Both the position numbers and the translations under genes were made by a program. This document shows, piece by piece, positions 17,274 through 25,560 of a DNA stretch of 30,698 nucleotides; position 1 is the first letter of the stretch; each line of letters begins with the position of its first letter. The notes below the pieces were generated by a model. It did not search any database. It saw nothing but the letters and a program-made list of their open reading frames with translations, and was not told where the DNA came from. Origin of the DNA: Escherichia coli (GTDB taxonomy: Bacteria; Pseudomonadota; Gammaproteobacteria; Enterobacterales; Enterobacteriaceae); the NCBI RefSeq assembly GCF_003334785.1, contig NZ_QOWV01000028.1. One strand, given 5' to 3'.

Positions 17274-17589
17274 CCGCTGACACAGGTCTGCGGCTGGAAT
17301 TGCCTGATGCGCTACGCTTATCAGGCCTACGAGTTCAGTGCTCTACGTAGGCCGGATAAGGCGTTCACGCCGCATCCGGCATAAACTACAGCTGGCAGAC
17401 AGCCGCTGCGAAGGCATTTTTGCACATGGCGTTGGAGGAATGCGCGGTTGTTGGCGGGAATGAATCACGGTAGCCGCTGACACAGATCAGCGGCTGGAAT
17501 TGCCTGATGCGCTACGCTTATCAGGCCTACGAGTTCAGTGCTCTACGTAGGCCGGATAAGGCGTTCACGCCGCATCCGGCATAAACTAA
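17190..17589. repeat. Two tandem copies of a 200-bp unit (17190-17389 and 17390-17589), each holding the last 27 codons of cynR plus a REP pair; about 97% identical
   Basis: Direct comparison of the two stretches shows six substitutions over 200 bp; copy 1 is contiguous with cynR, copy 2 is a detached cynR 3' fragment followed by the same REP sequences. Confidence 0.9.
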
Positions 17590-17609: not shown

Positions 17610-18893
17610 TCAACGTTTGTAATCGATGGCTTCTGGCTGCTCCAGATATACGGTGGTTTGTGCCGGTTGTGTGCTGGCAATCACCTTGCCGCCACGTACC
17701 GAATAACGTACCGGAACCTGACGGCGCAGCGCATCAAACCCATTTTCAGCCGGCAGGATAATCAGGTTGGCGCTGTTTCCGGCGGCAATGCCGTAATCCT
17801 GCAAATTCAACGTCCTTGCGCTGTGGTGGGTGATTAAATTCAGGCCATCGTTAATCTGCCCGTAGCCCATCAACTGGCAAACATGCAGCCCCATATGCAG
17901 CACTTGCAGCATATTCGCCGTTCCCAGCGGATACCACGGATCGAAGACATCATCGTGACCAAAGCAGACGTTAATGCCGGACTCCAGCATCTCTTTAACG
18001 CGCGTGATGCCGCGACGTTTTGGATACGTATCGAAACGTCCTTGCAGATGAATATTGACCAGCGGGTTGGCGACAAAGTTAATACCGGACATTTTCAGCA
18101 AGCGGAACAGGCGTGAGGTATACGCCCCGTTATAGGAGTGCATTGCCGTGGTGTGGCTGGCGGTGACTCGCGCGCCCATGCCTTCATGGTGCGCCAGGGC
18201 AGCAACGGTTTCGACAAAGCGCGACTGCTCGTCATCGATCTCATCACAGTGAACGTCGATGAGACGGTCGTATTTTTGCGCCAGGGCGAAGGTTTTATGC
18301 AGCGACTCCACGCCGTATTCACGGGTAAATTCAAAATGCGGAATCGCCCCCACTACATCTGCCCCTAAGCGTAACGCCTCTTCCAGCAACGCTTCACCGT
18401 TGGGATACGACAAAATCCCTTCCTGAGGGAAGGCGACGATTTGCAGATCAATCCACGGCGCGACTTCCTGCTTCACTTCCAGCATTGCTTTCAGCGCAGT
18501 TAGCGTTGCATCCGAAACATCGACATGGGTACGCACATGCTGAATGCCGTTGGCAATCTGCCATTTCAGCGTTTGCCATGCGCGTTGTTTCACATCGTCA
18601 TGGGTTAATAACGCTTTGCGCTCGGCCCAGCGTTCAATGCCTTCAAACAGCGTGCCGGACTGATTCCAGTTCGGTTGTCCGGCGGTTTGCGTGGTGTCCA
18701 GGTGAATATGTGGCTCCACAAACGGCGGTATAACTAAACCTTGTTCGGCATCCAGGCTGTTTTCAGTTATGGGCATCACGCCGGATTGCGCATCAATGGC
18801 GCTGATTTTTCCGTCCTGCAGATGAATCTGCCACAGCCCCTCTTCGCCTGGTAACCGGGCGTTAATAATTGTTTGTAAAGCGTTATTCGACAC
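17610..18893 (-). CDS. codA: cytosine deaminase
   Basis: ORF track 432 aa from 18908; canonical 427-aa CodA begins (GTG)[38 protein letters not shown] at 18893; its start lies 11 bp inside the 3' end of codB. Confidence 0.94.
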
Positions 18894-20142
18894 TGTTAGC
18901 CTCCACATGCGTCATTGCTGCTGTCGTTTTACGATTCAAAATCGGGTTAAGGATCAGATAGCTCAGCGCGCCACCTAATACCGCGTTGACCGGAACAATT
19001 CCCGGTAACCAGTGGCCTGCAGCAATCCCCAAGGCGACCGCCAGAATCGCCACCCAATTGACACTCATCATACGCGTGGTCGCAAAGTGCTCATAGCGGC
19101 GACGGTTCATCAGATAGTCGGCGATGATCACGCCACCCACTGGAGGAATAGCTGCCGAAAGGAAGGTCAACCAGCCGACAAAATTGTTATACAGCCATAA
19201 TGCGCAGACCGTACCGATAATACCGTTGATTACCGAAAGGGTTTTGCTCGACATCCCGGTAATGTTGGCGAAACCTAAACCCGACGCATAGAGTGCGTTA
19301 TCGTTGGTGGTCCAGATATTCAGCCCCAGCACCACAATCGCAGGCAGCAGCAGGCCCTGAGCAATCATCACATCAGAGATATCCGCCATGCCCAGTGCCG
19401 CAGCGCCCGCTGCACCGAAAATAAACATCAACGAGTTGCCGAGGAAAAAGGCCACCATCGCCACCAGCACCGCCAGTTTGGCATTGCGACCAAACCGGAC
19501 AAAGTCAGCGGTGAGCGTACCCGCACTGATAAATGACCCCACAACCAGCGCCAGCGCGACATTGAAATCTAACGGTTGTGCGGGAACGACCGCTTTTAAT
19601 GCGTCCAGGCCGCCCATGCCGTTAACAGCCAGCCACACGGAATAACCGCCCAGGCAGGCGATAGCCGGAACCGCAATCACCGAAAGAACCGTCAGCGCCG
19701 AAATGCCAAAAAAGACGGTGACGGTCATCAGTAAACCGGAAACGGCAATCAGCAAATTAATATCCAGCCCGGTTGCCTTACCCACCGGAATGGCAAACAT
19801 CGCCACACCGACGCCAAACCAGCCAACCTGAGTTCCGCCCAGTAGCAGTGAAGGCAGCCATGAGCCTTTAACACCAAACGAGAAGCGAGCAAGAAGATGA
19901 GTGGTCAGGCCGGTTTTTGCGCCAATGTAACCGAGAAATGAAGTGTAAATACCGAGGAGAAGATTACCGATGAGAACTGCGAGGAAGAAATCATGATAGC
20001 TAAGACCGGTTCCGAGAGTGCCGCCGGTCCACATACTGGCGGAAAAGAAGGTTAATCCCAGCATGACGAACGTCAATGCCAATACCCCTTTCCGCGCCGA
20101 CTGCGGGACTGGCCCCTGGCTAAAGTTGTTATCTTGCGACAC
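18883..20142 (-). CDS. codB: cytosine permease (NCS1 family)
   Basis: ORF 419 aa [52 protein letters not shown]...; canonical length, polytopic membrane protein. Confidence 0.96.
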
Positions 20143-20208
20143 GAAATTCCCCCTTTTTGCTGTTTGAAACCCAAAAAATCCGCCGCATTCTATTCATCTG
20201 AAGATAAA

Positions 20209-20224
20209 AAGCAATCGTTTTCGT
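20209..20224 (-). promoter_or_regulatory. PurR-box-like sequence upstream of codB (minus-strand reading acgaaaacgattgctt)
   Basis: About 13 of 16 positions match the PurR operator consensus ACGCAAACGTTTGCGT as I remember it, 67-82 bp upstream of the codB ATG; codBA is known to be purine-repressed. Assignment is by pattern only. Confidence 0.4.
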
Positions 20225-20292
20225 GGGGAAATATATTTTTTATATGAATGAGTGCAAAAAGGTGGGGGAAAAATTATCGGTGTAAAAACAGT

Positions 20293-20455
20293 GGGTAGGC
20301 CTGATAAGACGCGTCAGCGTCGCATCAGGCATCTGAGCATGGTGTCGGATGCGACGCGAGCGCCTTATCCGACCTACGGTTCAGGTCCGTAGGCATGATA
20401 AAACGCGTCAGCGTCGCATCAGGCATCGGCACACAGTGCCGGATGCACCGCGCGA
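20293..20455. repeat. REP/BIME cluster between prpE (3' end) and the codBA promoter
   Basis: Repeated gtaggcctgataagacgcgtcagcgtcgcatcaggcat and gtcggatgcgacgcgagcgccttatccgacctac type palindromes read directly. Confidence 0.85.
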
Positions 20456-20471
20456 CGCATCCGACAATAAC

Positions 20472-22358
20472 CTACTCTTCCATCGCCTGGCGGATCTGAT
20501 CCAACGACGCAGGATCATCAATGGTCGTCAGATCTCCAGGATCGCGTCCTTCGCAAATCGCCTGGATCGTGCGGCGCAGCATTTTTCCGGATCGCGTTTT
20601 TGGCAATTGCGAGACAAACCAGACGTGCGCCGGGCGGCCAAAGTTGCCAATCTGGCTGTCCACCAGCGCCATAATCGCCTTCTCTTGCGAGTGCGCCACA
20701 TCACGATCTTCCAGACTGTCGCTCTCTTTCGGAATGACAAACGCCACCGCCACCTGCCCTTTCAGCGCATCTTTCACCCCAACCACCGCCACTTCGGCAA
20801 CGCCCGGATGGCTGGAGATACTCTCTTCAATCTCGCGCGTCCCCAGCCGATGCCCGGCAACGTTAATTACATCGTCAGTGCGCCCGAGAATAAAGTGATA
20901 ACCGTCAGCGTCACGGATGCCCCAGTCAAAGGTGGCGTACACCGGGCGGGAAAACAGCGACCAGTAAGTCTTCACAAAGCGGCCGTCGTCGCCCCAGATG
21001 GTCTGAATACACCCCGGCGGCAGCGGCCCTTCCACCACCAGCATCCCTTTCTCGTTGACGCCACACGGTTCGCCGGTGACTTCATTAAGCAACTGCACGT
21101 TATAGCCATACATCGGCACACCGGGGCTTCCCAGACGCGTCGGCCTGTCGTCCAGACCGCGAGCAATCGCCATAATCGGCCAGCCGGATTCGGTCTGCCA
21201 GTAGTTGTCGATGACCGGCACATCCAGCGTATTGCTCACCCAACTGGCGGTCGGCTCGTCCAGCGGTTCTCCAGCCAGATAGAGCACTTCCAGCGACGAG
21301 AGATCGTGTTTGCGAATTTCAGCGGTAGGGAATTTTTTCAGCACGCGAATGGCGGTCGGCGCTGAGAACATCCGGCTAACCTGATATTTCTCGACGATTT
21401 TCCACCACACGCCGCAGTCCGGCCAGGTCGGCAATCCTTCGTAAACGATAGTCGCCATCCCCGCCAGCAGCGGCGCGTAAACGATATACGAATGCCCCAC
21501 CACCCAGCCGATATCCGATGCGCAAAAGAACACGCTGCCCGCTTTGCCGCCAAAAATGGTGTCCATCGAGGTCGCCAGCGCCACCGCATATCCGCCGACG
21601 TCACGCTGCACGCCTTTAGGTTTGCCGGTCGTGCCGGAAGTGTAGAGAATGCAGGAGGTTTCGTTGGATTCCAGCCACGCCACCGGTACCCGCGCGCCGA
21701 TGTGTTGATGGCGCAACGACGCGAAATCGACATCCCGCCCGCTGACGCGCGCCATTTTCGCCAGCCCGCGATCCACCAGCAAAACATGGCGTGGCTGGTG
21801 CTGCGCCTGACTTATCGCATCGTCGAGCAATTTTTTATAGGGAATGATTTTGCCACCGCGCGCTCCGGCATCAGCCGAGACAATCAGCACCGGTTTAGCG
21901 TCATCAATTCGCGCCGCCACGCTGTGCGAGGCAAATCCACCAAACACCACCGAGTGAATAGCGCCAATGCGCGCGCAGGCCAGCAGAGTAATATGCGCTT
22001 CGGCAATCATCGGCATATACACCAGCACCCGATCGCCGCGCTGCACACCCAATGAACGCAACATTGAGGCCACCGCGTTCACTTCGTCATGCAGCTGACG
22101 AAAGGTAAAGGTGCGCTCTTCTTCTGTTTCCGAAGAGACGGCAATCAGCGCCAGCGCCTCTGGCTGTTTCTCCAGCCAGCGGTCGATGGCGTTGTGGCAC
22201 AAGTTGGTTCGGCCTTCACAAAACCAACGGGCAAACGGCGGATTGCTGTGATCGAGCGTTTGCGTAAAGGGCGTCTGCCAGTCAATACGCCGGGCCTGCT
22301 CGGCCCAGAACTGCTCCGGTTCGTTAATCGAACGCTGATAAAATTCGCTAAAAGACAT
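20472..22358 (-). CDS. prpE: propionyl-CoA synthetase (acyl-CoA ligase, AMP-forming)
   Basis: ORF 628 aa MSFSEFYQRSINEPEQFWAEQARRIDWQTPF... with the YTSGTTGKPKG AMP-binding motif; canonical PrpE length. Confidence 0.96.
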   Translation of the reverse strand: MSFSEFYQRSINEPEQFWAEQARRIDWQTPFTQTLDHSNPPFARWFCEGRTNLCHNAIDRWLEKQPEALALIAVSSETEEERTFTFRQLHDEVNAVASMLRSLGVQRGDRVLVYMPMIAEAHITLLACARIGAIHSVVFGGFASHSVAARIDDAKPVLIVSADAGARGGKIIPYKKLLDDAISQAQHQPRHVLLVDRGLAKMARVSGRDVDFASLRHQHIGARVPVAWLESNETSCILYTSGTTGKPKGVQRDVGGYAVALATSMDTIFGGKAGSVFFCASDIGWVVGHSYIVYAPLLAGMATIVYEGLPTWPDCGVWWKIVEKYQVSRMFSAPTAIRVLKKFPTAEIRKHDLSSLEVLYLAGEPLDEPTASWVSNTLDVPVIDNYWQTESGWPIMAIARGLDDRPTRLGSPGVPMYGYNVQLLNEVTGEPCGVNEKGMLVVEGPLPPGCIQTIWGDDGRFVKTYWSLFSRPVYATFDWGIRDADGYHFILGRTDDVINVAGHRLGTREIEESISSHPGVAEVAVVGVKDALKGQVAVAFVIPKESDSLEDRDVAHSQEKAIMALVDSQIGNFGRPAHVWFVSQLPKTRSGKMLRRTIQAICEGRDPGDLTTIDDPASLDQIRQAMEE

Positions 22359-25084: not shown

Positions 25085-25560
25085 CGAGATTGTTGTCGGA
25101 TGCGACGCTATGCGTCTTATCCGACCTACAGTTCAGTTCACCCCGTAGGCCTGATAAGTCGCGTCAGCGGCGCATCAGGCATCGGTTGTCGGATGCGACG
25201 CTATGCGTCTTATCCGACCTACAGTTCAGTGCACCCCGTAGGCCTGATAAGTCGCGTCAGCGGCGCATCAGGCATCGGTTGTCGGATGCGACGCTATGCG
25301 TCTTATCCGACCTACAGTTCAGTGCACCCCGTAGGCCTGATAAGTCGCGTCAGCGGCGCATCAGGCATCGGTTGTCGGATGCGACGCTATGCGTCTTATC
25401 CGACCTACAGTTCAGTGCACCCCGTAGGCCTGATAAGTCACGTCAGCGGCGCATCAGGCATCGGTTGTCGGATGCGACGCCATCCGTCTTATCCGACCTA
25501 CAGTTCAGTGCACCTCGTAGGCCTGATAAGTCGCGTCAGCGACGCATCAGGCATCGGCTG
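25085..25560. repeat. BIME array: five tandem 93-bp units, each a head-to-head REP pair, between prpC and prpB
   Basis: Unit starts at 25085, 25178, 25271, 25364, 25457 (and a degenerate edge at 25550), giving a period of exactly 93 bp; units are near-identical with divergence at the array ends. The reverse-frame ORFs across it are repeat translations. Confidence 0.92.

Follow-up and report, generated by a model that had tools for sequence, protein, structure and literature searches.

Between prpE and codB in Escherichia coli, a 16-bp sequence resembling a PurR operator lies next to a block of REP palindromes, and this arrangement raises the question of whether the two elements form a regulatory unit or are merely adjacent. 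We analysed the locus within a 30,698-nt stretch of E. coli DNA (hereafter the window, to which all coordinates refer unless stated otherwise), for which a sequence-only reading had described the operator as combined with the REP cluster. The 329-bp spacer between the two genes corresponds exactly to positions 20143–20471. The 729 bp around it are shared with K-12 at 100% identity and are found in practically every E. coli genome. Window coordinates were converted to those of K-12 (NC_000913.3) by subtracting the window position from 375064.

The orientation of the flanking genes determines how transcription from one could affect the other. On the window minus strand, the ORF list and RefSeq annotations place the coding sequence of prpE, encoding propionyl-CoA synthetase, at 20472–22358, with its TAG stop codon at 20474–20472; this assignment agrees with RefSeq K-12 and other strains and with the 100% DNA identity to K-12. 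The coding sequence of codB, encoding cytosine permease and beginning with a GTG codon, occupies 18883–20142 on the same strand according to the ORF list and RefSeq annotations, and codA follows it at 18893–17610 (minus strand; ORF list, RefSeq). In the NC_000913.3 annotation prpD, prpE, codB and codA are all on the plus strand, and other strains agree. prpE had been read as convergent with codB, but the ORF list, NC_000913.3 and other strains all show that the two genes are arranged in tandem on the window minus strand. Since they share one strand, transcripts reading through from prp would be in sense orientation to codBA; the proposal that such read-through is antisense to the codB promoter started from the wrong premise, as the genes are co-directional.

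The PurR operator within the codBA promoter

The 16-mer ACGAAAACGATTGCTT is located at 20209–20224 on the minus strand, 67–82 nt upstream of the codB GTG codon (20142), and the position given for it in the sequence-only reading is borne out. It is the sole match in the window to ACGCAAACGTTTGCGT at three or fewer mismatches. A plain search for ACGCAAACGTTTGCGT is not significant on its own, with 0.29 matches expected per window and 25 of 100 shuffled sequences giving at least one. The significance of the box was therefore taken from a matrix scan in place of the consensus search, using a matrix constructed from the 27 other ChIP-chip PurR motifs in Table 1 of Cho et al. (2011), with the codBA site left out. 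On this matrix ACGAAAACGATTGCTT scores 22.0 bits, the best value in the 30.7-kb window on either strand, which exceeds the 19.9-bit median of the genuine (training) PurR sites and was reached by only 2 of 300 windows simulated with a first-order Markov model. The second-best match in the window, AGGACAACGGTTTCGT at 3707–3722, scores 14.4 bits, and the weakest genuine sites score as low as 12.1 bits. By coordinate arithmetic this sequence appears to fall inside a coding region, and it is probably a chance match.

The identification of the 16-mer as a PurR operator is right and was already established. In Table 1 of Cho et al. (2011; PMC3159470) the same 16-mer is given as the PurR motif of the codB–codA transcription unit, at 354,064–354,079 of an older genome build. 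Coordinate mapping (addition of 776) converts this interval to K-12 354840–354855 and hence to window 20224–20209, and both the sequence and the genome position are those of the site occupied in vivo. The same study (PMC3159470) reports ChIP-chip enrichment at the codBA site in the presence of adenine and a 34.5-fold drop in codB upon adenine addition; codB and codA were classed as directly repressed by PurR, and PurR motifs were found to sit on the −10 and −35 regions. Operators of the pur regulon (purF, purT, purL, purHD and others) share a 16-bp imperfect palindrome that fits ACGNAAACGTTTGCNT, has a central CG and overlaps the core promoter. Comparison of the codBA box with the documented codBA PurR site reveals no difference, as they are the same site, and the box departs from the ideal palindrome at three positions (A4, A10 and T15).

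The outcome of the plain consensus search, in which a quarter of the shuffles also produced a match, would be compatible with a chance palindrome at this position, purine control of codBA then being indirect. Published in vivo PurR occupancy at the exact motif, together with purR-dependent repression (PMC3159470), argues strongly against this, as do the matrix score, which exceeds the median of genuine sites, and the conservation of both the box and its position in Enterobacterales and Pasteurellaceae (see below). A chance origin is thus exceedingly improbable, and we regard it as effectively refuted.

The operator is built into the codBA promoter. The PurR box ends in the six bases TTGCTT, which constitute the −35 hexamer, and the −10 hexamer, TAGAAT, is located 16 nt downstream of it (20187–20192, minus strand), with TA..AT being invariant in 19 Enterobacterales promoters. 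The initially transcribed region GATTTTTTG (20172–20180, minus strand), assigned from the sequence and from the published start region, begins with the seventh nucleotide past TAGAAT (bases 7–15); G (20180) and A (20179) are the alternative start sites, and a T6 tract comes after them. These start-site positions (G7/A8) are reportedly those of Qi and Turnbough (1995). With G 20180 as +1, the PurR box extends from −44 to −29, which takes in the −35 hexamer. The codB promoter is therefore not far from the box, a possibility that the sequence-only reading had itself raised. In view of this overlap, the complex of PurR with hypoxanthine or guanine would repress codBA by shutting RNA polymerase out.

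Downstream of the operator, the start region has the characteristics of the UTP-sensitive class of promoters subject to reiterative transcription (codBA/upp), namely G/A starts, a T6 tract and the right distance from the −10 hexamer. The sequence 5′-ATTTTTTG has been quoted as the codBA initially transcribed sequence (PMC7039003). At codBA, the start site switches in response to UTP, and this switching is coupled to reiterative transcription of a non-productive kind (PMC12709180 and PMC6245113, both with reference to Qi and Turnbough, 1995); the start region in the window is the one responsible for this behaviour. Within the class of UTP-sensitive promoters that comprises pyrBI, upp-uraA and codBA, the window shows the published codBA start region without any difference, GATTTTTTG being positioned 7–8 nt after the −10 hexamer.

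Just upstream of the PurR box, direct reading of the sequence identifies ATATAAAAAATATAT (20231–20245, minus strand), an ATA-N9-TAT motif of the type associated with NAC, the nitrogen assimilation control protein. The motif is centred 58–59 nt upstream of the start sites, and the NAC class calls for ATA-N9-TAT near −59 or −64. Muse et al. (2003) reportedly footprinted NAC at −59 of codBA, and a RegulonDB-derived network lists Nac as acting on codBA. The motif is not conserved in the other genera sampled. Both this site and the GATTTTTTG start region had been overlooked in the sequence-only reading.

A promoter consensus scan missed the codBA promoter, because TTGCTT matches TTGACA at only three of six positions. 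Such a weak −35 element is consistent with dependence on an activator. The scan also returned a sigma-70-like match, TTTGCA-17-TATATT, at 20230–20258 on the minus strand, overlapping the NAC motif and upstream of the real promoter; with 0.8 matches expected, it occurs at about the chance rate and is probably meaningless. The codBA promoter has a weak −35 hexamer, TAGAAT as its −10 hexamer, a putative activator site of the NAC type that directly precedes the PurR box, and a G/A start followed by the T6 tract. Given the PurR box, the NAC-type site and the UTP-sensitive start, codBA would integrate purine, nitrogen and pyrimidine signals.

Conservation of the cod module across genera

Conservation of the operator was assessed in a set of 80 codB loci, with one genome per species. 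Sufficient upstream sequence was available for 29 Enterobacterales loci, and 28 of them have a PurR box scoring 16–23 bits at 58–67 nt before the codB start; genera carrying it include Hafnia, Proteus, Citrobacter, Salmonella, Kluyvera, Edwardsiella, Morganella, Providencia and Budvicia. These box-bearing loci also have an [AG]TTTTT+G tract 29–38 nt before the start codon. The single exception in this order is a Pluralibacter metagenome bin, in which the best match reaches 11.7 bits at 57 nt and is on the opposite strand. Pasteurellaceae have a box of 18–21 bits at 58–60 nt in nine out of ten loci, the exception being Spirabiliibacterium (3 bits), and in the codB loci of Vibrionaceae the box is weaker and variable. 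Control windows taken from inside the codB coding sequence gave 8.5 bits or less on the PurR matrix.

When the upstream regions of 19 Enterobacterales species were aligned, the invariant columns were those of the PurR core, the TA..AT of the −10 hexamer and ATTTTTT, and the G preceding ATTTTTT was kept in 18 of the 19 genera or species. No conserved sequence was found upstream of the PurR box in this 19-species alignment. In pairwise comparisons with Hafnia, Citrobacter, Salmonella and Proteus, homology of the E. coli DNA starts within window positions 20228–20197 and runs to the end of codA, and its start falls at the PurR box, at 20224–20228, in three of the four cases. Since homology starts at the box and nothing is conserved upstream of it, the PurR operator can be regarded from these alignments as the 5′ edge of an old and conserved codBA module.

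The history of this module may not be one of vertical descent alone. E. coli CodB is 94% identical to that of Hafnia paralvei and only 82–84% identical to those of Salmonella, Citrobacter and Kluyvera, and the Hafnia promoter has an identical PurR box together with a longer, E. coli-like 5′ UTR. The CodB identities, the Hafnia promoter and the start of homology at the PurR box are hints that the codBA module may have been exchanged horizontally.

The BIME-2 array and its independence from the operator

The REP block consists of four units, all given here on the minus strand in the direction from prpE to codB. REP 1 (20437–20475) is a degenerate y-type unit, GTAGGTTATTGTCGGATGCGTCGCGCGGTGCATCCGGCA, recognized by the inverted repeat I7 and by an alignment to the y consensus with a score of 9 that includes indels. 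An 11-nt linker (20436–20426) separates it from REP 2 (20389–20425), an inverted z2-type unit, TGCCTGATGCGACGCTGACGCGTTTTATCATGCCTAC, with two mismatches to the z2 consensus. A further linker of 11 nt (20388–20378) leads to REP 3 (20343–20377), a y-type unit, GTAGGTCGGATAAGGCGCTCGCGTCGCATCCGACA, which differs from the y consensus by five substitutions without gaps and is associated with inverted repeats I9 and I2. After a third 11-nt linker (20342–20332), the array ends with REP 4 (20295–20331), an inverted z2-type unit, TGCCTGATGCGACGCTGACGCGTCTTATCAGGCCTAC, that follows the z2 pattern without mismatch and is marked by the direct repeat D1. Matches to the z2 consensus itself extend over 20295–20330 (no mismatches) and 20389–20424 (two mismatches), with none expected by chance. 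The y and z2 consensus sequences used for this typing follow Bachellier et al.

REP 3 and REP 4 together with their 11-nt linkers make up one 94-bp BIME-2 unit, and direct repeat D1 has the same 94-bp spacing. The array as a whole thus comprises four alternating y and z2 REPs, or two 94-bp units, between 20295 and 20475, and the GTAG/CTAC tetranucleotide is kept in all four REPs. BIME-2 elements are described as y and z2 REPs with short linkers, arranged in tandem copies whose number is variable at a given locus (PMC3333891), and on its sequence features the array would be classed as an ordinary BIME-2. The REP block had been delimited as 20293–20455; its palindromes are real, but the extent has to be corrected to 20295–20475, since the degenerate y REP reaches 20475. 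The TAG stop codon of prpE lies within the GTAG of REP 1 (20472–20475), whose first G is also the third base of the codon before the stop. The palindromes themselves are extragenic, and the foot of the REP 1 hairpin begins 6 nt past the prpE stop.

A search of Rfam assigned 20298–20374 (minus strand) to the naRNA4 family (RF02564) with 71.6 bits, the gathering score of the family being 59.5, and the second unit, at 20392–20466, scored 44.4 bits, which is below threshold. The naRNA4 model was built on the y+z2 unit of REP325 and amounts to a description of such a REP pair, and a match therefore denotes a REP-type repeat and not a dedicated sRNA gene. On the transcribed strand, the RNA of the REP block is predicted to fold with −103.6 kcal/mol (z-score −6.9). 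The array shares with REP325/naRNA4, located between yjdM and yjdN, the alternation of inverted y and z2 REPs, short linkers, tandem repetition, a position between co-directional genes and a copy number that varies between strains. REP325 has 6 units (12 REPs), whereas the K-12 prpE–codB array has 2 (4 REPs). Unlike REP325, the prpE–codB array has a degenerate promoter-distal y REP that overlaps the prpE stop codon, and its downstream gene has a regulated promoter of its own and is outside the upstream operon.

Other REP/BIME arrays are present in the window. A BIME is found at the start of the window (3–134), two perfect y REPs are located just downstream of codA (17347–17580), and an array between prpB and prpC (25145–25552) contains five z2-containing units, three of which score above the Rfam naRNA4 threshold. 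With arrays downstream of codA and upstream of codB, codBA is bracketed by REP clusters on both sides.

Comparison of E. coli strains separates the array from the promoter. Spacer lengths in the strains sampled were 235, 324, 329, 423, 893 and 985 bp, which correspond to approximately 1, 2, 2, 3, 8 and 9 units of 94 bp, respectively, and the PurR box, the −10 hexamer and the T tract were unchanged across strains with arrays of differing length. The REP-free 152 bp adjacent to codB (20143–20294) is single-copy and present in 5224 of 5426 E. coli genomes, with at least 99% identity in 3982 records, and queries containing REPs match a median of 9 places per genome. The codB promoter fragment was without a match in 202 of the 5426 complete E. 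coli genomes, and eight of the matches were on plasmids. Among the 80 codB loci, prpE and a REP array were found upstream only in the E. coli representative.

Since the array is lineage-specific and variable in copy number and the promoter is constant, the PurR operator and the REP array are mere neighbours with separate histories. The claim that the operator is combined with the REP cluster does not hold for an array that ranges from 1 to about 9 units and is missing upstream of codB in other genera; the word describes adjacency and not a unit. We consider it highly probable that the interval is a prpE–codB spacer that holds two unrelated and already described neighbours, the codBA promoter and a BIME-2 array serving as the 3′ UTR of prpBCDE. 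The PurR site, the logic of the codBA promoter and the REP/BIME arrays are all already known for E. coli K-12. What the present analysis corrects is the picture of the locus: the genes are in tandem, the array reaches the prpE stop, the conserved cod module begins at the PurR box, and the array is a lineage-specific, copy-variable neighbour and not the partner of the operator.

Possible roles of the array at the prpE 3′ end

The array forms the 3′ UTR of prpBCDE, which runs in the same direction as codBA, and its RNA would fold into hairpins of very high stability. Judging from REP arrays located elsewhere between tandem genes, these hairpins most likely protect the 3′ end of prp mRNA from exonucleases, and most likely also stop part of the read-through into codBA. 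REP hairpins are known to block 3′-to-5′ exonucleases, and the ends left by trimming of Rho-terminated transcripts often coincide with them (PMC6061677); some BIMEs attenuate transcription (Espeli, 2001, cited in PMC3333891 and PMC6061677). According to a 2026 preprint, REP325 functions as a partly Rho-dependent terminator and mRNA stabilizer between tandem genes, and REP arrays in such positions show a genome-wide bias towards expression of the upstream gene; neither this preprint nor the RepRanger paper mentions prpE or codB. On this analogy it is plausible that the array damps prp read-through, or insulates codBA from it, in the sense direction. Every functional effect that we propose for the REP array at prpE–codB is drawn from general REP biology and is put forward on that footing.

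The sequence that follows the array may be relevant to how transcription would stop. The spacer between the last REP and the promoter (20246–20294, minus strand) is rich in C and poor in G, with 17 C and 3 G residues in 49 nt, and its excess of C over G is within the top 0.27% of all 49-nt segments of the window. This composition is conserved in most of the E. coli strains sampled and not in other genera. It resembles that of a rut (Rho-utilisation) tract, from which we infer that the spacer would suit Rho loading, and a Rho-assisted stop is possible given such a C-rich tract after the array. A terminator scan predicted no intrinsic terminator on the minus strand between 19900 and 20700, and approximately 10 nt separate the REP 4 stem from the U5 run that comes after it. 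The notion that a REP doubles as a Rho-independent terminator was dropped, there being no terminator-like site on the transcribed strand.

The close approach of the array to prpE may also have consequences for translation. A REP within 15 nt of a stop codon is reported to stall terminating ribosomes (Liang et al., 2015, as cited in PMC12306157). At 6 nt past the stop, the REP 1 hairpin is inside this range, and it may affect termination of prpE translation.

It is also quite possible, if short of probable, that the array is repeat DNA, selfish or neutral, for which no role has been selected at this locus, any effect on prp or cod expression being incidental. Such a BIME would have been spread by a REP-associated transposase and would grow or shrink by slippage or recombination. 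The range of 1 to about 9 units next to a constant promoter fits well with this idea, as do the restriction of prpE and the array to the E. coli locus among the 80 examined, the three similar arrays elsewhere in the 30-kb window and the general variability of BIME-2 copy number at a given locus (PMC3333891). Complete loss of the array, however, was seen in none of the eight E. coli loci read; moreover, REP arrays between tandem genes have a genome-wide upstream-expression bias, and the position of this array at a stop codon and ahead of a C-rich tract fits a role in the 3′ UTR. With an approximately ninefold range in copy number and no array upstream of codB in other genera, any selected function would be loose at most.

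A different type of function would be that of a gyrase-binding topological insulator, which absorbs the positive supercoils generated by prpBCDE transcription and thereby shields a supercoiling-sensitive codBA promoter. The array is of the BIME-2 type, for which gyrase binding and cleavage have been reported, and topological-insulator activity of REPs has been reported as well (both in work cited in PMC3333891); in addition, the tandem layout means that positive supercoils from prp transcription would move towards codBp. Such a function would, however, need high prp transcription, and it explains the variation in copy number no better than the other models. A recent preprint, moreover, has REP325 acting at the level of RNA and transcription and not on chromosome structure. 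We therefore consider a topological insulator unlikely.

The preferred reading, in which the array acts as the prpBCDE 3′ UTR beside an unrelated promoter, leaves the variation in unit number to be considered in its own right. It is conceivable, but quite doubtful, that the number of BIME-2 units (1 to about 9) serves as a dial that sets both the leak of propionate-induced prpBCDE transcription into codBA and the stability and translatability of the prpE message. If so, E. coli lineages would differ in the coupling between propionate catabolism and cytosine salvage while their promoter and coding sequences remain unchanged. The locus offers a natural series of 1 to about 9 BIME units before a well-characterised promoter, and may serve as a testbed for ideas about REPs as terminators or stabilizers in 3′ UTRs.

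A further feature of the region is located within the 3′ end of prpE, where seven GATC (Dam) sites are clustered in 98 bp (20493, 20498, 20513, 20531, 20540, 20565 and 20590); the expectation from the window average is approximately 0.43 per 110 bp. In one published study that examined the prpE 3′ end, prpE was untranscribed under the conditions used, and the RNA polymerase ChIP signal some 200 bp further downstream, near the codB promoter, increased upon deletion of dam.
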